NCBI GenBank assembly: GCA_963830365.1
Contig: CAWHMU010000027.1
Location: 1 to 64,000, forward strand
From: an uncultured Chlamydiae bacterium
GTDB taxonomy: Bacteria; Chlamydiota; Chlamydiia; Chlamydiales; Parachlamydiaceae
Direction of reading: 5' to 3'
DNA: 64,000 nucleotides
Below the pieces are notes generated by a model that worked only from the letters and a program-made list of their open reading frames with translations, had not been told where the DNA came from and did no database searches. Positions 2,467-49,256 of this stretch are shown piece after piece (position 1 is the stretch's first letter; every line of letters begins with the position of its first letter). A program made the translations under genes and the position numbers.

Positions 2467-3166
2467 GGTTCATCCGACAAATGAGGACCTCGACTCGTAG
2501 AGATAATAAAGCAGGTTTAAAATATTCCATATTCAAGAAGTCGTATACTTGTCTTTTCGACGAAGGTTTGCAAGTAGGCTAAAATGTGAGCCCTGTTCAC
2601 CTTCATAGGAAAACTTTCGGTCACGATGATACTATCTTCTCTATCCCCTCTCCGTGGTCTCTGTGCCTCTGTGTTTCAAAAAAATCAAACACAGAGGCAC
2701 AGAGAGCACGGAGCAAGAAATTGACTGGTTGGGTGAACAACGCCAAAATGTGCGCTTACCGCGGCAGCGGTCAACAGATTTCAGCCCCGCGTGCAGGCGC
2801 TTCCTGCGCCGGAACGTGGGGGGTTCGCATAAATTTAAAAGGCAACCGCGGCAGCGGTGTAAGAGGCCTACAAAGCTCTTACACCGCTGCCGCGGTTTTG
2901 ATATTATGTGTATTCTGACCCCACGTTCCGGCGCAGGAAGCGCCTGCACGCGGGGCTGAAATCTGCTGACCGCTACCGCGGTATAAGGCACTATCCAACA
3001 TCTTAATTTGAGCTACATAAGTACCTTTGCAATTTTCTCAAACGGGGATTGTAGAAGGTTTACTCAAGATCTCAAGCAGTTCACAAAGTTCTGATAATGA
3101 AGGTTCATAGAAATCTGAAGACTTAATACTTTTACCTGCTAAAGGTCCTCATTTGTCGGATGAACC
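2467..3166. mobile_element. 700-bp non-autonomous TIR element (MITE-like), copy E1
   Basis: Perfect 24-bp TIRs GGTTCATCCGACAAATGAGGACCT; 8-bp direct repeat AAAATTCT at 2459-2466 and 3167-3174; no transposase ORF. Confidence 0.92.
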
Positions 3167-5904: not shown

Positions 5905-6269
5905 GGTTCATCACGCCAATGAGTACCTGTCCTAGAGAATGGGGGAAATGGCTTAGTTTGAAATGGTTAAAAAAAGAGAAGCAGACATCGTATTAGGTCT
6001 CTTGAAGTAAAAATGAATTTAACACGCCTGCTTTACTGTTGCACCATACCAATCAAATCGAGAATATACAAATCAAAACTGGTTCATCAAACAAATGCGT
6101 ACCTATGAGGCTTCCCGACCTTCTCTGTGACTCTGTGCCTCTGTGGTTAAATCCGCTTACTGTTGGCATAGCATTATTAATCAAAGTGTTACAAAAAGCT
6201 TCACCACAGAGGCACAGAGTCACAGAGAAGGTCGGGAAGCCTCATAGGTACGCATTTGTTTGATGATCT
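5905..6269. mobile_element. 365-bp TIR element E2 of the same family, with an extra internal TIR at 6081
   Basis: Left end GGTTCATCACGCCAATGAGTACCT; right end (rc) AGATCATCAAACAAATGCGTACCT; 8-bp direct repeat GCTTTTTA at 5897-5904 and 6270-6277; 64-bp perfect inverted arms 6084-6147 / 6203-6266. Confidence 0.82.
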
Positions 6270-11627: not shown

Positions 11628-12325
11628 GGTTCATCCGACAAATGAGGACCTCGACTCGTAAAGATAATAAAGCTGGTTTAAAATATTCCATATTCAAGAA
11701 GTCGTATACTTGTCTTTTCGACGAAGGTTTGCAAGTAGGCTAAAATGTGAGCCCTGTTCACCTTCATAGGAAAACTTTCGGTCACGATGATACTATCTTC
11801 TCTATCCCCTCTCCGTGGTCTCTGTGCCTCTGTGTTTCAAAAAAATCAAACACAGAGGCACAGAGAGCACGGAGCAAGAAATTGACCGGTTGGGTGAACA
11901 ACGCTAAAATGTGCGCTTACCGCGGCAGCGGTCAACAGATTTCAGCCCCGCGTGCAGGCGCTTCCTGCGCCGGAACGTGGGGGTTCGCATAAATTTAAAA
12001 GGCAACCGCGGCAGCGTTGTAAGAGGCCTACAAAGCTCTTACACCGCTGCCGCGGTTTTGATATTATGTGTATTCTGACCCCACGTTCCGGTGCAGGAAG
12101 CGCCTGCACGCGGGGCTGAAATCTGCTGACCGCTACCGCGGTATAAGGCACTATCCAACATCTTAATTTGAGCTACATAAGTACCTTTGCAATTTTCTCA
12201 TACGGGGATTGTAAAGGTTTACTCAAGATCTCAAGCAGTTCACAAAGTTCTGATAATGAAGGTTCATAGAAATCTGAAGACTTAATACCTTTACCTGCTA
12301 AAGGTCCTCATTTGTCGGCTGAACC
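11628..12325. mobile_element. 698-bp TIR element E3, near-identical direct copy of E1
   Basis: Same TIRs (one mismatch in the right TIR), collinear with 2467-3166; flanks ATAAAAGA / ATTAATTG give no target duplication. Confidence 0.92.
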
Positions 12326-32953: not shown

Positions 32954-34588
<1,635 letters not shown>

Positions 34589-34598
34589 CAAGAGCAGT

Positions 34599-34636
34599 AA
34601 AAAGCCCCGGGAAGCAATTCCCGGGGCTTTTTTTTG
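34599..34636 (+). terminator. Rho-independent terminator of groESL
   Basis: AAAAGCCCCGGGAA-GCAA-TTCCCGGGGCTTTTTTTT. Confidence 0.85.
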
Positions 34637-34662
34637 AAACAAGCCCTTATGGATTTAAATGC

Positions 34663-35619
34663 ATGAACAGCCTCGATAACACATTTTCAACACAAGTCTA
34701 CTTTCCACCCGCATGGGAAATCCCATCTGCCGCCGCAGCCGCCATGTTGCTACCGCCGCCCGATTCCAACTGCGCTAGAGTAGACCTGCTTAGAGATAGA
34801 ATCCCCTTCAATGATACTCAGAAGCAAACAGTAGCCTACAACCAGCGCATTAAAGAGCGCGCTAAAGCCGGCGACCTAAACGGCTGCTATCAGCTGGCGG
34901 AGGAAATGTCAGCCAAAAACCTGCCAGCCGATGCCTATACCTGTCATTCAATCATTCATTGCCATGTAAAACACGGCCAGGCCGCTGCCGCCTGGCAAAT
35001 CTTTAATACCATGACTGCTATCGGCATATCTCCTAATATTGCGACATTCAATTCTTTGCTGAAGCTGCCTGTAAAAGCTGGCGATGCCGAGGGCGCAGAA
35101 GCCCTCTTAAGAATAATGAGCGAGTATGGAATAGAACCCGACGTGATGACGTACACCTCCTTGATCAACCTGTATGCAAAATCAGGCGATGACGAGCTTG
35201 CCGAAGCCACCTTGGCACATATGAAAAGCAGAATAAAGCCCGATGCCTGGATATTTAACTGCCTAATCAAACTCTACCTGAATAAAGGCAATGAAAGCGA
35301 AGCGCTGCGCATTTTAAACAGCCGCATGGATGAGCATCACGTAAAACCCGATGTCGTGACTTTCACCACCTTCATCAATTATTATGCTGACTGCCATTGT
35401 GAATGGCGCGCCGAGACGATATTAGACTTCCGCATGCCCAAAGCCGGCGTCACACCTGACAAGGCCACGCTGTTGACCATGCTAAAGCTTTACACCAACA
35501 CCAATAACAGCTCCAAAAAGCAGCTCATCGAAAGCCAGCTGCAGGAACTGAAAGCAGCACCTCCTCATCGCAGAACCGCACGCATTTATCACCATCGATT
35601 TCAACACGTTCAACGCTAA
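34663..35619 (+). CDS. Pentatricopeptide-repeat (PPR) protein
   Basis: About six ~35-aa units: ADAYTCHSII, PNIATFNSLL, PDVMTYTSLI, PDAWIFNCLI, PDVVTFTTFI, PDKATLLTML. Confidence 0.9.
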   Translation: MNSLDNTFSTQVYFPPAWEIPSAAAAAMLLPPPDSNCARVDLLRDRIPFNDTQKQTVAYNQRIKERAKAGDLNGCYQLAEEMSAKNLPADAYTCHSIIHCHVKHGQAAAAWQIFNTMTAIGISPNIATFNSLLKLPVKAGDAEGAEALLRIMSEYGIEPDVMTYTSLINLYAKSGDDELAEATLAHMKSRIKPDAWIFNCLIKLYLNKGNESEALRILNSRMDEHHVKPDVVTFTTFINYYADCHCEWRAETILDFRMPKAGVTPDKATLLTMLKLYTNTNNSSKKQLIESQLQELKAAPPHRRTARIYHHRFQHVQR

Positions 35620-35782
35620 AACGCATCAGCCCCAAGCTGCTGGAAAAGCCGACATGGCAGACGATGCGGACGCAAAGCCACAAGCTGCTCGCGCCCAAAC
35701 GCTAAGCCAACATCCGTCCGCCTGTTTTGTCCATTTTCGTCCGCTCTGTCCGCAGATTTTCTGACAGATCCAGCCTAAGAAA

Positions 35783-35873
35783 TTGCTGTCGCCGTATTCA
35801 CGGCTTTGCTGCTAAACAACCTCTCACCACACGCTGACGCATGTGGCTACATGCTACCGCCTCTAGCGAGGCT
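35783..35873. repeat. Half copy of the GTAGCCAC-type REPIN-like repeat
   Basis: Matches the right half of 36747-36984. Confidence 0.75.
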
Positions 35874-35944
35874 AAAATCTGTCCTCCCTCGTCCGAACTT
35901 GCTGTCCGCCTGTTTTGTCCGCTTCGTCCGCCCTGTCTGCCATA

Positions 35945-36013
35945 GCCTCAAAGCAAAAAAAATCCCGGGAATGGCCTTCCCGGGATTTTCGCTGCCTTCA
36001 CGAATGTCAGGCC
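35945..36013 (-). terminator. Shared terminator block, copy 1
   Basis: Minus strand AAAATCCCGGGAAGGCCATTCCCGGGATTTTTTTT; repeated at 37318-37385 and 39803-39871. Confidence 0.8.
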
Positions 36014-36055
36014 TGATTCCATGCTTTGTTTTTGATACCGACGTCAGCTTCAAAG

Positions 36056-36388
36056 TTAACTTTCAACCTTCTTTGAAACCCTCTTTGTCAGAGCATAACT
36101 CGGCTGATATTTAATGCTTCTGGTTTGAGCTTTGGCAGGTTTTTCCTGTGCTTGGATCTCTTTTCCAATTTCGTATAAGACATCAGGGCAGAAATCCACC
36201 TCATTGGGCCAGCATACAGTGGTATCATCCAATGAAAAGTGCTTAAAATATTTTACATCTAATAAAGGCAGGAAAAGGCCTTTTGCATTCTTCAAAAACG
36301 GTTTAAAATCGACAACCTTGACTGCACCATCACTGAAAACCATCTTTATTTTGTAATCTTTGACATATTCAGCTTTTTTGACTCTCAT
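36056..36388 (-). CDS. DUF2442 family protein (partner of a putative DUF4160/DUF2442 toxin-antitoxin pair)
   Basis: YKIKMVFSDG...VDF...TVCWPNEVDFCPDVLY. Confidence 0.85.
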   Translation of the reverse strand: MRVKKAEYVKDYKIKMVFSDGAVKVVDFKPFLKNAKGLFLPLLDVKYFKHFSLDDTTVCWPNEVDFCPDVLYEIGKEIQAQEKPAKAQTRSIKYQPSYALTKRVSKKVES

Positions 36389-36581
36389 CGTTACACCAAC
36401 GGTTCGATTTTATTAAATTTCTCTTTCTTCAAAAGTTCCCAGTTTTTCTTCAGCTCTTTTTTGTGCATCTCTGCCCATTCGACTACCAAGCCTGTAACCC
36501 TCGCCGGGATCTTCCCTTTGATTACTTCGAGCGTATCGATCAAAAAAACGGCCTCATGCTCCCCATAAAAAGCATGAAAAT

Positions 36582-37125
36582 GGTTCATCGCACAATCGCG
36601 TACCTCGCCTTATGTAAATTAATCGAGGTCGTTGCAAATACTGCATCATAAAAATCCACAAATTGCATGTTCGCTCCTGTGAAGGTAGGAGTTGAGCCAG
36701 TACTGCCATATAAGCGACAGGGCGCAAGCCATGAGAACATTTTTAAAGCCTCGATAGAGGCGGAAGCATGTAGCCACATGCGTCAGCGTGTGGTCATCAC
36801 ATGTTTAGAAACAAAGCCGTGAATACGGCGACAGCAATGACTAAAGGATATTATATGGTGTAATAATCGCATTTAATTCAACCTCCCTCGAAGTTGCTGT
36901 CGCCGTATTCACGGCTCACTTTTTGCTACATTTCATTCCATAGGTTGACACCTATGGCTACATGCTTCCGCCTCTATCGAGGCTAACTAGATCTTCTGTG
37001 CTAGAATGTCGATTTGTTTCAAAGAGAACCCCACAAATATATTGTTAATTCTCGTTTTCCAACCAGCCATTATTAAGTCTTTTTAACGAATCCTCTCAGA
37101 CAGGTACGCGATTGTGCGATGAACC
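36582..37125. mobile_element. 544-bp TIR element E4
   Basis: Perfect 24-bp TIRs GGTTCATCGCACAATCGCGTACCT; 8-bp duplication ATGAAAAT at 36574-36581 and 37126-37133. Confidence 0.95.
36747..36984. repeat. REPIN-like nested inverted repeat inside E4
   Basis: 30-bp perfect outer arms AGCCTCGATAGAGGCGGAAGCATGTAGCCA; 23-bp inner arms AGCCGTGAATACGGCGACAGCAA. Confidence 0.85.
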
Positions 37126-37317
37126 ATGAAAATGGGGCGGGTTATGATCGACAAAATACATTTTTATCACAATTCCTAAAAATCGGCTAATCTCCGGCAT
37201 GCACAAACCCTTTACTACAGTATAACACAGCATAACAAAAAATTAACCAGCTAACCAACAAAAAGGGGTGAAAAAGCATCAGACCGCCCGTCTGCCACGT
37301 CCGCCCTGCCCGCCAGC

Positions 37318-37385
37318 GCCTCAAAGCAAAAAAATCCCGGGAATGGCCTTCCCGGGATTTTCGCTGCCTTCACGAATGTCAGGCC
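37318..37385 (-). terminator. Shared terminator block, copy 2
   Basis: Near-identical to 35945-36013. Confidence 0.8.
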
Positions 37386-37413
37386 GCCTTGCCTGACATC
37401 GTCATCTTCTCAA

Positions 37414-38748
37414 TTATTTAAAGAACCTAAGACGATCTTGAATTTCTTTAATAGCCGCATCGACTTGGGTCGTCTCTCCATGCTGACGAAAACCTTCTTT
37501 TATCAGTCTTATTACCGTTTCGAGATCTTTCTTAGCAACAGGCTGCTCATTGTTCACAGCATGTTGAATATTTTCTACAGCCTTTGTCAAAGCTTGGTTC
37601 TGTGTTGAATTTGGTCCAGTCCAGGCTCCCAGACTCTCTTGCAAGGTTTTTCCTCTCTTTGTTTTTATTTCTCCGCTACCAAGTTGTTTTAATAAACTGA
37701 ACAATGAATCTATGGCTGTTCCACGCTCAGCCTTGTCCTCGTTAGCATCGGCTGCTCGTTTAGCCTCTTTTGCCTCGGCAGTCCCCCGTACTTCTGCGGC
37801 AAACTTCTTATTAGCCTCTTCTAGTCCCGGCAGTTTTGATGACGATTTCGTATTTGCTTTTTCCCGAACAATCTCGACTAAGCGTCCCTTTTGCCCGCTG
37901 TCTTCATGTGGCAGTTGCTTTAATAGGTTAACCACAGCATTGGGTTCTGCCTGGTCAATGATTTTTGCAAGCTGCCGAAGATCTTTTGGATCTATGCGAC
38001 TACCCGGCTGGCTATAAACATCAAAAAGCCTATTTAAATCACCTTGTTGATGTTCACTAAATTTATTCCAGTTGGTTTTAACATACGCCCCCACTACTTT
38101 CATAAATTTCTGTGGATCACGGGTTTGAACGCCACTTTCTACCAGTTGCTGTTTTCCTGCTTCAGCTCCATGCGCTTTAGCAGATGGTGTTGCTCTTGGA
38201 AAGGCTTTGGCGGCTTCATCTGCTGATTGTCTGCCTTTTTTAGCAGCTTCTCTTGCATCAGCTACGGTCTCAGCTACATTCTGCTCATCCCTAGCTTCTA
38301 TTATGACCTCTTTATCAAGACTACTTTCAAGTTTTTTTTCGATTTTACTAAGCTCACCTAAAATCTTCTGCTTATCTTTTTGCGCAAATATCGATGAACC
38401 TTTCATTTCACCTAGCGCTACCTTTATCTTAGTCATAGAATCATACACCGCATTTGGGTTTTTCTCTTTAATGTGGCGATCAAGACTACCTGTAAGATCT
38501 GTAAGTGACTTTATCTGGGCTTTTATTGTTTGCCGATCGGCCGCGGTATTCTTGCCATAACTGCCGCCAAAGGCGTTGCTAATACTTTTCAGAATCTGGT
38601 GTAACAGGTTGGAGAAGATATTTACATCTTTCCACGTAGTTACCTTCTGTCCGCCTGGCATCTCGCCCTTTGCAGGGACTGCCGCTGTTTGTTGTACATG
38701 AGCTGGTTGAACTGGACCTACTTGATTTCTATCTGTTGGACTAACCAT
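37414..38748 (-). CDS. Hypothetical helical protein, candidate T3SS effector (paralog 1)
   Basis: 444-aa ORF, AGGAGG RBS, N-terminus shared with paralog 2. Confidence 0.82.
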   Translation of the reverse strand: MVSPTDRNQVGPVQPAHVQQTAAVPAKGEMPGGQKVTTWKDVNIFSNLLHQILKSISNAFGGSYGKNTAADRQTIKAQIKSLTDLTGSLDRHIKEKNPNAVYDSMTKIKVALGEMKGSSIFAQKDKQKILGELSKIEKKLESSLDKEVIIEARDEQNVAETVADAREAAKKGRQSADEAAKAFPRATPSAKAHGAEAGKQQLVESGVQTRDPQKFMKVVGAYVKTNWNKFSEHQQGDLNRLFDVYSQPGSRIDPKDLRQLAKIIDQAEPNAVVNLLKQLPHEDSGQKGRLVEIVREKANTKSSSKLPGLEEANKKFAAEVRGTAEAKEAKRAADANEDKAERGTAIDSLFSLLKQLGSGEIKTKRGKTLQESLGAWTGPNSTQNQALTKAVENIQHAVNNEQPVAKKDLETVIRLIKEGFRQHGETTQVDAAIKEIQDRLRFFK

Positions 38749-39025
38749 AATTTCCTCCTAGCTAACTTTTAGCCGATTTGTTTGGATTCTCTTCACCGTT
38801 ATTTAAAGCTAACTAAAATTATAGAACATATTTTTTTCTATTTACAATAAAAATAGTTAGTTTAAATTTACATTTTATTAGTATTAAACAAACACAATAT
38901 TAACAATCGCACTTTTACATCCTTTTCGAGGCACCTTTTGAGGCCTAAGTTTCGCGAAACAATCTGCATTTTTCTTTGTTTTTTGTTTGTTTTGGTTTTT
39001 CTTTGTGATTGCTGCCTTATTTAAC

Positions 39026-39042
39026 TGCAATTGGCGTGCCAA
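39026..39042 (-). promoter_or_regulatory. sigma54 (-24/-12) promoter
   Basis: Minus strand TTGGCACG-CCAA-TTGCA, matching TGGCACG-N4-TTGCW. Confidence 0.75.
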
Positions 39043-39383
39043 GCATGGAGTGCCCTGTGGCCGCAACTACGCATGACCTTGTGGCTTAATCGTTTATATT
39101 TGTTTAATAGCCAATTTGGTTGTTGCACACATCTGGCCGTAGAGGCTTGTTTTCAGGCCCATATACCATGCATCCACCTCATCATCAACAGGATAGCTAC
39201 AACTTCCGTTTTGTTTGAACGCAGCTAGATGGGAGGCAGAACAGCCTCCGGCTGAAAGTTTGGCCATGCTCACCTTGGCGATGGGTTTAATTTCTTCCAA
39301 AAAAAATGAAATAAGTGGAATCCCATCCGGCTATTGGTTTAATTTCGTGCATCTAAACATCCAGCCTCAAGAAGCTTAAGTTC

Positions 39384-39570
39384 GCCGTGAAAACGGCGGA
39401 AGCATGTAGCCACAGGTGCGAACCTGTGGTAAATGCATCAACAATATCAAGCCGTGGCTACGGCGGCAGAGCGCTCGAAGACCCTGCCGCCGTAGCCACG
39501 GCTTAATGTCTTTGGCTATGATTACCACAGGTTCACACCTGTGGCTACATGCTACCGCCGTTTTCACGGC
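39384..39570. repeat. REPIN-like nested inverted repeat (GTAGCCAC family)
   Basis: GCCGTGAAAACGGCGGAAGCATGTAGCCACAGGTG... / ...CACCTGTGGCTACATGCTACCGCCGTTTTCACGGC with inner GCCGTGGCTACGGCGGCAG arms. Confidence 0.82.
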
Positions 39571-39802
39571 TACCTTAAGATCCTTAAGCTGGTATAAACC
39601 GCCGCCTTAACCAAGTACTCGCGTTAAAGAGAGGATTTCTGACAAAGTTAAGCAAGGATAGGTGTTTTCTTATAGCAGCGGCTTTGTCTTGGCTTGCACT
39701 AGTCCGCCTTAGCTAACGGGCTACAAAGAGATGGGCTACGCCGTCCGCTATGTCCACCGCGTCCGCCTGTATTGTCCGCTTCGTCCGCCCCTGCCCGCCA
39801 TC

Positions 39803-39871
39803 GCCTCAAAGCAAAAAAATCCCGGGAATGGCTTCCCGGGATTTTCGCTGCCTTCACACGCATATCAGGCC
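39803..39871 (-). terminator. Shared terminator block, copy 3
   Basis: AAAATCCCGGGAATGGCTTCCCGGGATTTTCGCTGCCTTCAC. Confidence 0.8.
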
Positions 39872-39901
39872 TTCAGGTCTGACCCGTGTTCTTTTTTGTT
39901 A

Positions 39902-41362
39902 TTATGACACCAACTTCTTGATCTCGGCTAGCCGTGCGGCGAGATCAGGAGTCACAACTTTTGGATTATATTTGAATCCCTCTTCTACTAAGGCAAGGGC
40001 GGCTTTTAACTCCTTACGTGCCTCAAGAGTATTAGCAATGTGCGGCTTATCATAGTCGGTTGCATACTTGATATAGAAGTTATGCAATGTATTCTGCTTG
40101 GCTGATGATAACAACAATGCGGCTGGCCCAGTCCTGCGCAATGCTGGATTCAAGACCGTTTTCTCGGCATCGGAAATTAAGTCCGTCAATTTGTCGAAAG
40201 CCTCGGCGTTGCGCGCTTCGGACGCTTTATTGGCTAACCCAGCCCTATCCAATTCTGCTAATCGACCAGCTACCTTTTGTTTTGTTTCATCGGTAAACAG
40301 TGGTTTTGTGTCAATCTTCTGCATATGAAGTTTATTTAGATTAGCTTCAACTTTCGCTATATCTTCATCGCTTGCATGTATATCTTCTTCCTTTCCTACT
40401 TTCCCTTTTCCCGGCGCTTCGAATTTCATCGGTTTTGTTTTATGCTGGCGGACGCCTTCCCTAATTGCTGGACGGCGGGATTCCGCGGCTGGTGTTTCGG
40501 CTGGTGTTTCGGCTGGTTTATGCTGCCGCGCTTGAAACTGTTCAGTTCTCCGCTTCTCTTCAGCAGCATCATTTCTTTCATTGTCATACTTCTGCTTATA
40601 TATATCTCCCAATCCCGGTTTCTTTTGTCTTGCTGTATGTTCCTGTGGTGTTGGTGTATGCGTTTTTTCAGCTGGTGTTGTTGGCTCTTCCTTTTTAGCA
40701 GCTGTTGTTGGTTCTGGTGATGTCGCGGCTCGTGCTGGCAAGCCCATCATTTCAGAAAAACGTTTAGCCTTGTCAGCTGCGGTGGCGTTCGCAGGTAACG
40801 GGGATAGTGTTTTTGCTGGTTCTTGGGCTTGTTGTGTTTTCTTTATTACTGGAGCTTCCATCGCCTTGGCAAATCTTCTTGCTTCAGACTTAGCCTTAAC
40901 ATGCTGTTCTATGTTCTTTGGAACCGCTACTTTAGTTGCGGATGGTTTTGCTTGTGGCGACAATTTCCCTTGTGCTACCTTAATTTGGTCTAATATTTCT
41001 TTGATATCTTGCTTAAGATATGGTCCTTTAGCTTTCGTTAAAAGCTTCTCAAAAACATCTTTATTATGTCCAAGGTTTTTTAACTGACTCTCTGATGTCG
41101 AGTTCTTTACAGTATTATCATAATTATGTTTTAGCTCTTTAAATATATTCCTAAAATCTGTCGACTGCTCTGCATAATTCTTCGAAAAGAATTTGGAAAG
41201 ATGGTGAAATATTGCTTTAAACATATCCTTAAGTGAAAGATCACTAAATTTCGTTACCTTCTGTCCGCCTGGCATCTCGCCCTTTGCAGGGACTGCCGCT
41301 GTTTGTTGTACATGAGCTGGTTGAACTGGACCTACTTGATTTCTATCTATTGGACTACCCAT
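39902..41362 (-). CDS. Hypothetical Pro/Ala/Glu/Lys-rich protein, candidate T3SS effector (paralog 2)
   Basis: Start MGSPIDRNQVG after AGGAGG RBS; first 37 codons nearly identical to paralog 1. Confidence 0.82.
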   Translation of the reverse strand: MGSPIDRNQVGPVQPAHVQQTAAVPAKGEMPGGQKVTKFSDLSLKDMFKAIFHHLSKFFSKNYAEQSTDFRNIFKELKHNYDNTVKNSTSESQLKNLGHNKDVFEKLLTKAKGPYLKQDIKEILDQIKVAQGKLSPQAKPSATKVAVPKNIEQHVKAKSEARRFAKAMEAPVIKKTQQAQEPAKTLSPLPANATAADKAKRFSEMMGLPARAATSPEPTTAAKKEEPTTPAEKTHTPTPQEHTARQKKPGLGDIYKQKYDNERNDAAEEKRRTEQFQARQHKPAETPAETPAAESRRPAIREGVRQHKTKPMKFEAPGKGKVGKEEDIHASDEDIAKVEANLNKLHMQKIDTKPLFTDETKQKVAGRLAELDRAGLANKASEARNAEAFDKLTDLISDAEKTVLNPALRRTGPAALLLSSAKQNTLHNFYIKYATDYDKPHIANTLEARKELKAALALVEEGFKYNPKVVTPDLAARLAEIKKLVS

Positions 41363-41648
41363 ATTTTCCTCCTGGCTAAACTTTAGCCGCTTTGTTTGGA
41401 TTCTCTTCACCGTTATTTAAAGCTAACTAAAATTATAGAACATATTTTTTTCTATTTACAATAAAAATAGTTAGTTTAAATTTACATTTTATTAATATTA
41501 AACAAACACAATATTAACAATCACACTTTTACATCCTTTTCGAGGCACCTTTTGAGGCCTAAGTTTTGCGAAACAATCTGCATTTTTCTTTGTTTTTTGT
41601 TTGTTTTTGTTTGTTTTTGTTTTTCATCATTTGTGTTGCCATATCTAA

Positions 41649-41665
41649 TGCAATCGGCGTGCCAA
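41649..41665 (-). promoter_or_regulatory. sigma54 (-24/-12) promoter
   Basis: Minus strand TTGGCACG-CCGA-TTGCA. Confidence 0.75.
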
Positions 41666-42101
41666 GCATGGAGTGCCCTGTGACTACAACTACGTAGCAC
41701 ATTGTGGCTTAATCGCTTACATTTGTTTAATAGCCAATTTGGTTGTTGCACACCTCTGGCCACAGGGGTCTGTTTTTATGGGCCAGAAAAACAGCGCATC
41801 TAATTCATTTTCAACAGGATAGGCATAGTTTTAGTTGTGTTTGAAAGCTGTTCTATACGGAAAGTTTGAAAGTTTGGCCATCATCACGATCACCTTACTC
41901 CGAGAAAATATTCGGCCACGCAAGCAATAAAAAGAATAACTCCGACGGAGTTAAGCAAGAATATGTGTTTTCCCGCAGCTGCGACTCATCTTCGCTTGCG
42001 CTCGGCAAGCCTTAGCCCCGGGCTACAAAGTGATGGGCTACACCGTCCGCATCGTCCACATCGTCCACATCGTCCGGCAACTAGGGGGCAGGCCTGGGCG
42101 G

Positions 42102-43859
42102 TCACGTCCCGCCGATTTGCCTGCCCAGCTTTTCGAGCATGGTTTTGATCGCGTCGATTTGGTCGTCATTCACAAGATGTTCATTAGGACCGAGCGCCTT
42201 TTCGATGGTTTCCAAAGCTGTGCCAAAGGCCGCTCGGCCCTGTTTGGTGTAGAGGAGGAGCGGATCATCCACAAGCTTTTCTATGGCACCCACCAATGGC
42301 CTATTATCATTTGGCCTATTATCATTGGCCAGCGGCTTGCGGCCGCCGAGAATGCCCTTTGTAATCACAGTTTGCACAGCCTCAAACAACACGACCAAAG
42401 CCTCTACAGCAGCATCGGCGCGCACACCGCCATGGAATTGCTGCAAGTTTTCAAGGAAGACCCGGCCACTTGTAGAATACAATTCAGCCAATGGGACGAG
42501 GTGCTTATCTTGTTTTCGGGCCAGGTATAGCCCCTCGATCAGCAGGTCTTTGGCTGCCTCCATATCCTTAAACAAAACGTCCAAATCGTCAAATCGGGTT
42601 TCAGGTCCGCCATAGATGTTTTCGCCGGGATGTTCGAATTTATCCATCAGCCGCGCCAGTTGCGCATACTTAGCTTCCCACTTCCCGCTTGTGTATTCGT
42701 CTTGTTGCGCTGCCACCATGCGCGGGACGATGTCGGCGCGGATACCGCTGTAAAATTGCGCTATGGACGTCAGGAATTTGTCACGGCTGGCGATCAGCTG
42801 TTTTTCCGCCACCAGAGAAACAGGCTTTATACTTGATGGCAGGTCCTTAGCAGGCGCTGCAGGAGCTGACTCACTTTTCTCCGTGGCCCGTGGAGCTCGT
42901 GCCTGATATAAAGCCGTACGGCGCATTTCTTCTTTGATAGTGTCTGAAGCTTGATCGCGCAGCTCTTTAAATTGCGCCACCATCTCGGCTTTGGCTTTTG
43001 TCTCGGGTAACCCTTTCAATTCCGGCTCGAAAGCGTCCAAAAGCTCAACACAAGCTTGATGATCTTCAGTCTGCATGTATGTCTCTTTGATGGCGTTAAA
43101 TCCCCCTTCTACCCGTGCCAGTTTCTGTGCTTCAGCTTTCTCCGCCGTCGTCATTTTCGTAGCAATGAAGACAGGCCTTACCTGCGCGCACATGTCCCGG
43201 ATGGCCTTGCCCGGGTCGTCCTCATCGGTTGGCAGGGCAGTGGCTGGCCGGAATTTTCCCTTACCTACGTTGGCAGGAGAGGGGCTTTTGACGGCCTCTT
43301 CATCACCTTCAGGAATGGTTTTTTTCTGCAGGCCGATTGGTTTCAAGGCCTTTTTTGGAGGTGCCTTTGGCGTGCCTTCTATCTTTGAGACTGTAAAACT
43401 CTTGACTTTGCGGATTCTTCTTGTGTTGCCAACTTTTTCAACGATCATAGATTTGAGTAGGTCGACCTTAGCCTTAATTTTGCCTTTATCTGTCTCAGCA
43501 AAGGGACCTGTCACTGCTAGCTTATCAACTTTTCTCACGATTGTGTTGATGGCATTCAACATTGCGATTAAAGATTTTTCATCATGCTTTAAATTCAAAT
43601 CATTTAACTTGTCGACAAGTACATTGACGGTATCTATTTGACCAGTGAGCGCTTTACGATTTTTGGTTGTCAGGTCGTGGTAAAACCCTGAAAAAAGCTT
43701 TTGCAGCTGGTGGATGATGTTGGCAAAAAAGTTTACATCCTTGCTGGTGGCTTTGCTTATCTTTTCACCGGCCGGCAGACGGCCAACCTGTGCGGTTGGC
43801 GGTATCTTGGCCGGTTGTCCGTGCGCATCATGTCCTTTGCCTTGAATTGTCCCACCCAT
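42102..43859 (-). CDS. Hypothetical helical protein, candidate T3SS effector (distant paralog 3)
   Basis: Start MGGTIQG after AGGAGG; GRLPAGEKI..KDVNFFANIIHQL resembles paralog 1 GEMPGGQKV..KDVNIFSNLLHQI. Confidence 0.8.
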   Translation of the reverse strand: MGGTIQGKGHDAHGQPAKIPPTAQVGRLPAGEKISKATSKDVNFFANIIHQLQKLFSGFYHDLTTKNRKALTGQIDTVNVLVDKLNDLNLKHDEKSLIAMLNAINTIVRKVDKLAVTGPFAETDKGKIKAKVDLLKSMIVEKVGNTRRIRKVKSFTVSKIEGTPKAPPKKALKPIGLQKKTIPEGDEEAVKSPSPANVGKGKFRPATALPTDEDDPGKAIRDMCAQVRPVFIATKMTTAEKAEAQKLARVEGGFNAIKETYMQTEDHQACVELLDAFEPELKGLPETKAKAEMVAQFKELRDQASDTIKEEMRRTALYQARAPRATEKSESAPAAPAKDLPSSIKPVSLVAEKQLIASRDKFLTSIAQFYSGIRADIVPRMVAAQQDEYTSGKWEAKYAQLARLMDKFEHPGENIYGGPETRFDDLDVLFKDMEAAKDLLIEGLYLARKQDKHLVPLAELYSTSGRVFLENLQQFHGGVRADAAVEALVVLFEAVQTVITKGILGGRKPLANDNRPNDNRPLVGAIEKLVDDPLLLYTKQGRAAFGTALETIEKALGPNEHLVNDDQIDAIKTMLEKLGRQIGGT

Positions 43860-43993
43860 AGCACCCTCCTGGTTTGCCCTATTCAACAAATTATAAACTA
43901 TATTTAAATAATAAATGTAATTTATTATACAAACAGCATACTATTTCATTCCAACCAACTAATAATAAACAACGACAGCTAAGCCTACGCGGA

Positions 43994-47949: not shown

Positions 47950-49198
47950 CCCACACCTGCGCTGCGCTTAGGTATGGGCTACAGAATGAGAGAAAAAGGG
48001 CAAAAAAGAGATCCCCTCTAGCATTCATGATCGACCCAAGAAACGGCAATTGTTTCCCACACCTGCGCTGCGCTTAGGTATGGGCTACAGAATGAGAGAA
48101 AAAGGGCAAAAAAGACCTTGCCTCTGGCACTCATAAATTATCCTCTAAATGGCAGTTGCCCATGTTCAACTGCCGTTTCCAGGAGTATCCACATACAAGT
48201 CTTGAAATAGAGCGAATTCATTTTCATTTTAAACTTTTTTTAGTTGGCGGAAGCCTTATCTTTTTTGCCCTTTCTCTCTCATTCTGTAGCCCACACCTAA
48301 GCGCAGCGCAGGTGTGGGAATCCATGCCCACAAGACATAACCGGGGACCGGTTCTTCTTTTTTCTTTCCTACAAATAAATTTATCATTATGAATTGAGGA
48401 TCTCCAACCCATCTCACGCATAAAAATGGATAAATTGTATGACGCACACCTTTACAAACTTTCTATATCATGTGGTCTGGTCAACGAAAAACCGAAAGCC
48501 TTTTATCAAAAAGGAACTAAAACCCCGTCTACATGGTTACATAAGAACCATTATCAACGCTGAGGGGGCAAATTTACTGTTCATCAATGGAGTTGAAGAC
48601 CATGTCCATCTTCTCATAGCAGCTCCTGCCAACATGTTGATACCAGGTTTAATTGAAAAAGTTAAACCCCTATCTACAAAGTGGTTTCGCAAATCATTTC
48701 CTGATACAAAAGACTTTTCCTGGCAAGAGGGGTATGGCGCATTTTCGGTAGCCAAATCAATTATGCCGGCTGTAATAAAGTATATTGAAAATCAAGAAGA
48801 ACATCACAAGACCGTAACCTATCAGGACGAATTTTTACATTTCTTAAAAGAACAAGGTATCCCTTACAATCCTGATTACGTTTTCGACTGAAAAAAGAGA
48901 AAAAAGAAGAACCGGTCCCCGGTTAGGTAACCAGTCCCTAGCTCCCATACCTGCGCTGCGCTTAGGTATGGGCTACAGAATGAGAGAAAAAGGGCAAAAA
49001 AGAGATCCCCTCTAGCACTCATGATTAATTTAGAAACGGCTTATAGGCAACTGCCGTCTCTTGGATTATCCCCCATTCATTTTCATTTTAAAGCACTTTA
49101 ATAGGCGGACGCCCCATCTTTTTTGCCCTTTCTCTCTCATTCTGTAGCCCATACCTAAGCGCACTGTAGTCCATACCTAAGCGCAGCGCAGGTGTGGG
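47950..49198. repeat. Cluster of GTAG-type REP sequences around the RAYT gene
   Basis: GTAG-CCCATACCTAAGCGCAGCGCAGGTGTGGG at 47950-47982(-), 48056-48088(-), 48286-48318(+), 48944-48976(-), 49166-49198(+), plus a partial copy at 49144. Confidence 0.9.
48439..48891 (+). mobile_element. tnpA: IS200-like Y1/HUH transposase, REP-associated (RAYT/TnpA-REP-like)
   Basis: YHVVWSTKNR, DHVHLL (HUH), WQEGYGAFSV, YIENQ catalytic Tyr; flanked by inverted GTAG REPs; no tnpB. Confidence 0.9.
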
Positions 49199-49256
49199 AA
49201 CCCATGCCAATAAGACCAAACCGGGGACCGGTTTTCCTTTTTTTCTCATGACCTGT

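Follow-up and report, generated by a model that had tools for sequence, protein, structure and literature searches.

What is the 544-bp insert that divides a DUF4160 gene in this chlamydial genome, what moved it there, and is the gene lost or could it be switched on again? The window analysed here, a stretch of 64,000 nucleotides, lies on contig C27 of a 2.73-Mb assembly (82% complete, 48 contigs), and the insert, E4, occupies positions 36582..37125 (no strand assigned). The answer that we hold to be highly probable is that E4 is a non-coding element with ISL3 ends which entered DUF4160, likely recently and moved by an ISL3 transposase, that it likely inactivated a toxin gene, and that the doublet of REP-like repeats inside it likely spreads by riding along.

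The divided gene reads on the minus strand. Its 5' piece (37126..37200, codons 1-25) ends in HNPPHFH, and its 3' piece (36391..36581) includes one copy of the target duplication (TSD). Scanned separately, the two match consecutive parts of the PF13711 model, positions 1-19 (22.4 bits) and 17-65 (54.8 bits), and the 3' piece also scores 47.4 bits on the DhiT model NF048015. An earlier note on this DNA had named the gene DUF4160 and observed that removing E4 (544 bp) and one 8-bp duplicate restores an intact 85-aa ORF, and both statements were borne out: the deletion yields an 85-codon frame running from 37200 to 36391, which retains 24/24 positions that are at least 90% conserved in 14 family homologues. 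On an HMM of these homologues (the 14 proteins extractable from 23 loci) the rejoined frame scores 141.7 bits, like the homologues, whose 128.0-149.7 bits come from sequences that are themselves in the model. The gene is uninterrupted over residues 1-84/85 in 4/7 related loci tested (best identity 78%), and in genome G021 the two DNA matches abut with an overlap of 8 nt.

DUF4160 lies directly before a DUF2442 gene (36056..36388, minus strand; PF10387, E 2.3e-15), with the same 2-nt spacing as in the closest orthologues. This partner is intact, as the note had also held: its 110-aa product aligns from end to end with the nearest orthologue (locus L126), at 59% identity. Intact DUF4160 orthologues score 85.9 and 86.9 bits on the NCBIfam DhiT model (cut-off 100), and the DUF2442 protein scores 27.8 bits on the DhiA equivalog NF048016 (cut-off 200); because these values fall below the cut-offs, we call the pair dhiTA-like and not a filed member of that system. 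By analogy with the gene order of dhiTA, DUF4160 is most likely the toxin and DUF2442 likely the DhiA-like antitoxin, which agrees with the view that one member of a putative toxin-antitoxin pair was inactivated and points to the toxin as that member. A fold search with the model of an intact orthologue (pLDDT 95.7) gave no clear match among 48,161 chains (best Z 5.4); a HicA-like RNase is one idea for the activity. Identical 58-bp terminator-containing repeats bracket the pair, one 3' of it (35956..36013) and one upstream (37328..37385), as direct repeats without an assigned strand. Through recombination between these repeats the two genes could be gained or lost as a cassette.

The surroundings offer some further observations. 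Another copy of the 58-bp repeat lies at about 39812-39869, among three tandem minus-strand ORFs of 444, 502 and 595 aa (37414-38748, 39902-41410 and 42102-43889) that share related N-termini and duplicated upstream DNA; they have no Pfam match over cut-off and are possibly secreted effector-like paralogues. On the other side, the window holds groES/groEL, directly followed on the plus strand by a gene (34663-35619) for a 318-aa pentatricopeptide-repeat protein (PF13041, E 7.5e-39), a eukaryote-type RNA-binding repeat found here in a bacterium. These genes would suit an environmental chlamydia.

What would the cell make from the divided gene? The 5' reading frame runs 9 codons into the TIR and then meets a stop, for a product of 34 residues. 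On the 3' side an in-frame ATG supplied by the TIR opens a 65-aa ORF (36391-36588), from which strands 1-2, H19 and the PP of the invariant HxPPHxH motif are missing. In the secondary structure of the modelled intact orthologue, strand 3 contains the insertion point, which follows residue 25. Insertion there would part the HxPPHxH motif from the rest of the protein, with neither piece expected to fold. Judged by this model, both pieces are likely non-functional, and E4 likely silences the putative toxin gene.

The ends of E4 indicate how it arrived. Its TIRs are 24 bp long, start with GG and are perfect, as the note had stated: the end at 36582..36605 (plus strand), on the side of the transposase 3' end of the ancestral IS, is complementary at 24/24 positions to the end at 37102..37125 (minus strand), on the 5' side. 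Identical copies of ATGAAAAT flank the element on the plus strand (36574..36581 and 37126..37133). The maximal direct repeat at the ends is 11 bp, and at this site alone TSDs of 4, 6, 8 or 10 bp are formally allowed; we set the length at 8 bp because end pairs across the family share identical 8-bp flanks (49/124 facing end pairs in a genome-wide list in which many pairings are wrong). Across the elements the TSDs are 80% AT. The interior contains no transposase, its longest ORF having 65 codons.

For a metagenome-type assembly in 48 contigs, an artefact in which a repeat was collapsed into DUF4160 deserves mention, but the flanks are unique, the 8-bp duplication is exact, position 60 of E4 carries a private base relative to all five closest full copies, and the frame rejoins exactly as in orthologues; we give this reading negligible weight. 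The preferred reading, a genuine insertion, leads to the question of its age.

E4-type flank DNA occurs at 61 loci in the genome, of which 30, counting E4, cover at least 90%. Two copies on other contigs differ from E4 by 2 changes, and the remainder range down to about 80%. The perfect TIRs of E4 are no sign of youth, since copies of active ISL3 elements have ends matching at 18-23/24 positions and older relatives of E4 have one different end. Near-identical copies are therefore the better evidence for recent movement. Together with the uninterrupted orthologues, these two copies uphold the proposal that E4 was inserted recently into a DUF4160 gene that had been intact until then. The note had gone further and called the locus direct evidence of mobility; mobility is inferred from the TSD, the copies and the orthologues, and "direct" overstates the case. 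Elsewhere in the genome, two family members of differing age (95.8% and 99.6% to E4) stand in tandem, 5 bp apart (C4:44741-45834). Three more MITEs with ISL3 ends lie in the window at 2467-3166, 5905-6269 and 11628-12325, the first two with perfect 8-bp TSDs.

Elements of the ISL3 family have GG-starting TIRs of about 24 bp and make an 8-bp AT-rich duplication. The genome contains 22 matches to the ISL3 transposase domain PF01610; 12 cover the full domain, 11 of them in frames of 410-412 aa, and the transposases score above the NF033550 cut-off. Intact genes sit in elements of 1302 and 1327 bp that have GG-starting ends and 8-bp TSDs, and the four 1327-bp copies compared are identical. The ends of E4 match those of the intact 1327-bp element at 18-19/24 positions and those of a broken 1377-bp ISL3 at 18-20/24. 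The likeness extends inward. Taken without its TIR, the left flank aligns to the transposase 3' end in the 1327-bp element with a score that 1/300 shuffles also reached, and the last codons read LHKARYAIVR* in E4 and LHKVRYSFAR* in the intact gene; 36606..36746 (minus strand) is what is left of the 3' part of an ISL3 transposase gene, now decayed, together with unassigned DNA. The right flank aligns to the 5' end of the same element (0/300 shuffles as high with the TIR; 17/300 without it, which is weak), and 36985..37101 (minus strand) is probably what remains of the untranslated DNA at the 5' side of the ISL3.

Because ends, TSD and flank alignments all agree with co-resident ISL3 elements, E4 on this sequence evidence is an ISL3-type MITE. 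Its ancestor would have been an ISL3 element that lost its transposase, and intact ISL3 transposases would act in trans on the GG-ended TIRs, inserting the element at AT-rich 8-mers. An intact ISL3 with the exact TIR of E4 is absent from the assembly (best 19/24), and there is none with its exact end among the loci of the 5/301 genomes that match the end pattern, which leaves the 1327-bp element as the best candidate source of the mobilising enzyme.

Between the ISL3-derived flanks lies DNA of another kind. The core (36747-36984) consists of two inward-facing units of about 90 bp, with three hairpins each: unit 1 at 36747..36837 (plus strand), whose middle hairpin has GTAG at its foot (36770), and the inverted unit 2 at 36894..36984 (minus strand) with GTAG at 36961. 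With the 56-bp spacer they form a REPIN-like doublet. A free single copy of the same unit lies nearby, outside any MITE, at 35779..35875 (minus strand). Across 17 sequences of the unit from several genomes, 99.7% of cells are paired and 10/18 pairs have changed on both sides; this covariation exceeds all 500 shuffles and all slid controls, relatedness being a factor that inflates such counts. Exact-pattern matches come mostly from MAG records labelled Chlamydiae, Chlamydiales or Chlamydiaceae.

The unit is associated with Y1 transposases in other genomes. It lies on both sides of PF01797 genes in 2/9 loci from named chlamydial MAGs (L055 and L060), and an ATAG variant flanks Y1 genes in 2/25 Y1 loci of five relatives. 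The enzymes of L055 and L060 carry the motif Y-x3-Q-x2-HH and pass NF033573 (IS200); the Y-x3-NP motif of class 2 TnpA-REP (RAYT) proteins is absent from both. Y-x3-Q-x2-HH is the motif of TnpA-Y1 subclass 1.2, which PMC6006769 groups with the IS200-like class 1 and apart from canonical RAYTs. Since the associated enzymes are of this subclass, we name the doublet REPIN-like and not a canonical RAYT REPIN. The gap left in the ancestral ISL3 element would have come to hold the two units as a Y1 cassette minus its gene. This genome has nine Y1 matches, and in the 82%-complete assembly the unit was not found beside any of them; because of that completeness, the matching Y1 gene may simply be missing. 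One Y1/IS200-like gene of the window (48436-48891 in the region 48286-49200, plus strand; PF01797, subclass 1.2 motif) has inverted flanking copies of a different GTAG repeat.

Could a Y1/HUH transposase have moved E4 by way of this core, with passive TIRs? The core is a Y1-associated repeat and Y1 genes are at hand. However, no Y1 gene here is flanked by the repeat of E4, and 8-bp TSDs placed exactly at the GG ends are the signature of a DDE transposase; HUH transposition is not known to make a target duplication. The TSDs largely refute this route, which we consider highly improbable, and transposition by ISL3 ends remains the preferred account.

The association of REP-like units with MITEs extends beyond E4. 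For 62/95 core loci there is an ISL3-type end no further than 200 bp away, against a background of 6.3%. Under a conservative test, 87/170 units abut MITE flanks, with two variants dominating, and 83 are classed as free. Because about half of the units are not beside MITE flanks, and these include tandem arrays, carriage by MITEs can be one route among others. The arrays comprise head-to-tail repeats of about 67 bp (C18:79-1352) and alternating BIME-like doublets (C46:60305-61222).

Other MITE subfamilies have ISL3-type ends around different palindromes, and several cores match repeats that flank genes: repeats that precede the Y1 genes on C20 correspond to the 239-bp core, the DNA flanking a Y1 gene on C45 corresponds to the 488-bp core, and GxxExxY (PF13366) genes are surrounded by repeats that match the 209- and 480-bp cores as well as an insert in a 498-bp element. 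The 311, 341, 412 and 531 cores match no tested gene flank; BLAST did not bear out a suspected match of the 531-bp core to a Y1 gene on C33, and a four-helix-bundle gene considered as a source of the 239-bp core gave no match. End modules are swapped around shared cores, giving mosaic subfamilies, which recombination between REP cores would produce. In another genus, genome G013 has a 385-bp ISL3-end MITE with the REP-like doublet of E4. The strict pattern of ISL3 end plus REP unit was found in 2/61 genomes of the family; a metagenome scan for it returned 3 loci in one sample, whose positions suggest the G013 genome and which we do not count as independent.

A second TIR family shows a similar build. 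Its ends read CAATTGCA[TG]AAGTG, and it includes 588-bp forms (C34:4327-4914, C42:24680-25267 and C3:37632-38219) and 175-bp forms (C7, C29, C33, C40, C42 and C46). Its candidate autonomous partner is a PF01609 element with matching ends (C1:5-1459); IS1595 was considered as the parent and rejected, with no PF12762 match, and the PF01609 element fits. Insertions of this family sit at the apex of small REP hairpins, hairpin 1 in the cores of the E4 family among them, and the core of the 588-bp form is the very repeat that flanks the Y1 gene at 48436-48891 of the window. As MITEs with ISL3 ends, in this genome and in five others, and those of a second DDE family carry gene-flanking palindromes, REP-like repeats likely hitchhike on DDE transposases. 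Candidate ways for cores to enter MITEs are Y1-mediated insertion, deletion between neighbouring elements and fold-back duplication.

How far does this go? We tentatively propose that in environmental chlamydiae DDE ends (ISL3 and PF01609-type) would as a rule be wrapped around the hairpin repeats found beside Y1/HUH and GxxExxY genes, since a fold-back core would make a better or cheaper MITE, and that REP-like repeats would owe their multiplication to this as one of the main routes, also in genomes that have lost the HUH enzyme belonging to them; we regard so broad a claim as possible, though open to considerable doubt. Given a chance only a little short of even is the alternative that the cores are incidental: MITEs would be neutral landing pads, the doublet would have been placed once by a Y1 enzyme or a chance deletion, and the pattern would stem from repeat-rich intergenic space and have no bearing on the success of a MITE. 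As such a view expects, 18% of non-ORF DNA is repeat-masked, core-deleted copies exist, and MITEs here collect nested IS110 and IS1634-like elements, a group II intron and other MITEs. Interiors without their TIRs nevertheless fold with z <= -4.9 in 12/12 subfamily representatives, though these were hand-picked and several cores are homologous, and in 5/6 MITEs from genomes G013, G020, G037, G216 and G066, compared with 1/40 random 300-mers (not confined to intergenic DNA) and 0/3 IS interiors. Insertion sites are also just a little nearer to repeats than controls (38/83 against 32%; both flanks, 15/83 against 16%). With so slight an excess, target preference for repeat neighbourhoods does not explain core capture and was rejected as its main cause. 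Incidental cores are compatible with our explanation of the E4 insertion itself, which stands under either view of the cores.

Two side observations belong here. A clean core-less ancestor of E4 was sought, and the sole copy without a core still has one outer hairpin, which gives it the look of a later deletion. Nested elements lie inside MITEs at C46:71190-73543, C29:8711-11111, C42:67789-70007 and C31:38055-40320, with ORFs labelled from their translations as a reverse transcriptase (group II intron-like), IS110-like and IS1634-like.

Is the toxin gene then permanently lost? The wider family of insertions is informative. After deletion of the element and one TSD copy, a restorable ORF of at least 80 codons was found at 18/79 non-nested elements, compared with 822/1000 random and 729/1000 AT-matched sites; at 150 codons the counts were 7/79, 757/1000 and 649/1000. 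Of these 18 junctions, several precede the first ATG. Insertions into genes are being purged. Within the family DUF4160 itself has a patchy distribution (30/61 genomes) and is often found as fragments. In our account the loss of the toxin would cost nothing and most other genic insertions would be purged; toxin loss being cheap, the E4 insertion survived.

It had also been suggested that E4 might be removed at the RNA level, in the manner of an intron, which would make the gene a regulated switch and no knock-out. A 26-bp duplex would close the folded transcript and place both junctions side by side (z -15.3), and removal would give a flawless frame. Rfam lent this suggestion no support: of the 8 weak matches over 34000-43000 (E<=1), not one reached the gathering score or belonged to a group I or II intron family. 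E4 encodes no ligating activity, and its family is depleted from ORFs, the opposite of what splicing would allow. A long duplex is, moreover, more likely to be cut than spliced; RNase III processes the long duplexes of Neisseria repeats. We find RNA-level removal scarcely credible.

A reversible switch at the DNA level would require precise excision between direct repeats to reactivate the toxin at a useful rate. The 11-bp direct repeat overlaps the ends and the strand folds back strongly (z -13.1), which make a good substrate for slippage deletion, so precise excision is possible in principle. But the site is ordinary, one of dozens of AT-rich targets, DUF4160 genes are patchy and fragmentary in the family, no empty allele was observed, and no second genome among those searched has an insertion here; a working switch is very improbable. 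A likely knock-out is the reading we keep. Its effect may reach the partner: E4 contains a terminator-like hairpin on the coding strand, and the internal hairpins would probably also attenuate the downstream gene, so that E4 may lower antitoxin transcription. The promoter scan, with 1 site for 3.2 expected, points neither way.

The knock-out as such is routine, for MITEs hit genes and toxin genes tolerate loss. What matters more is the composite build, ISL3 ends around a REP-like doublet. The mechanisms by which REP-like repeats are disseminated are described as poorly understood (PMC8266576). HUH enzymes cut and rejoin without obvious copying; about half of one REP-like family between ISL3 ends with TSDs offers a concrete, testable copying route by means of an ordinary DDE transposase. 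MITEs with and without a core provide a ready pair of substrates for asking whether internal hairpins help a MITE. IS-derived MITEs, REPINs, dhiTA and cargo-bearing MITEs are each already known, and the new part is the composite build and its recurrence; in the main text of the open-access literature we found no description of REP doublets inside ISL3 MITEs.

E4 resembles ISL3 insertion sequences and the MITEs derived from them in its GG TIRs, its 8-bp AT-rich TSD, its lack of coding capacity and the mostly intergenic location of its family; MITEs in general are reported to be about 90% intergenic (PMC11602168). It differs from IS-derived MITEs in that its interior holds, in place of IS sequence, two copies of a repeat from an unrelated class of transposase, and in having many sister subfamilies here, each with a different palindromic repeat. 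The toxin gene of dhiTA in Dickeya dadantii, a DUF4160/DUF2442 system, comes first and is toxic and neutralised in vivo (PMC8198452). The pair described here has the same Pfam domains in the same order with nearly abutting genes, but its partner has 110 aa as against the 160 positions of the DhiA model, and both proteins fall below the NCBIfam cut-offs.

REPINs, BIMEs and REPtrons are high-copy, intergenic, inverted pairs of GTAG-footed units (PMC6006769, PMC3733652, PMC5581495), and GTAG repeats are on record from the PVC superphylum (PMC3733652). E4 shares with them the two inverted GTAG-footed units and, in other genomes, the flanked PF01797 genes. It departs from REPINs in the length of its unit (about 90 bp, three hairpins), in the enclosure of the doublet by DDE ends with a TSD and in the subclass 1.2 enzymes. 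In surrounding unrelated repeats or captured DNA with IS-type ends, E4 also resembles BrickBuilt of P. gingivalis, a 23-nt minisatellite between IS5-type ends (PMC4596501), and TIMEs, in which IS-type ends enclose captured DNA (PMC4133298); in contrast to BrickBuilt, the cargo of E4 is the recognition repeat of another mobile system, captured repeatedly. Among insertion sequences the relation to REPs runs the other way. IS1397 and IS621 are REP-targeting, and ISPpu9 is an IS linked to REPs (PMC8450116 for ISPpu9). These three insert into REPs, whereas E4 encloses and carries REP-like units, and the second TIR family of this genome does both, inserting into REP-like repeats and carrying them.
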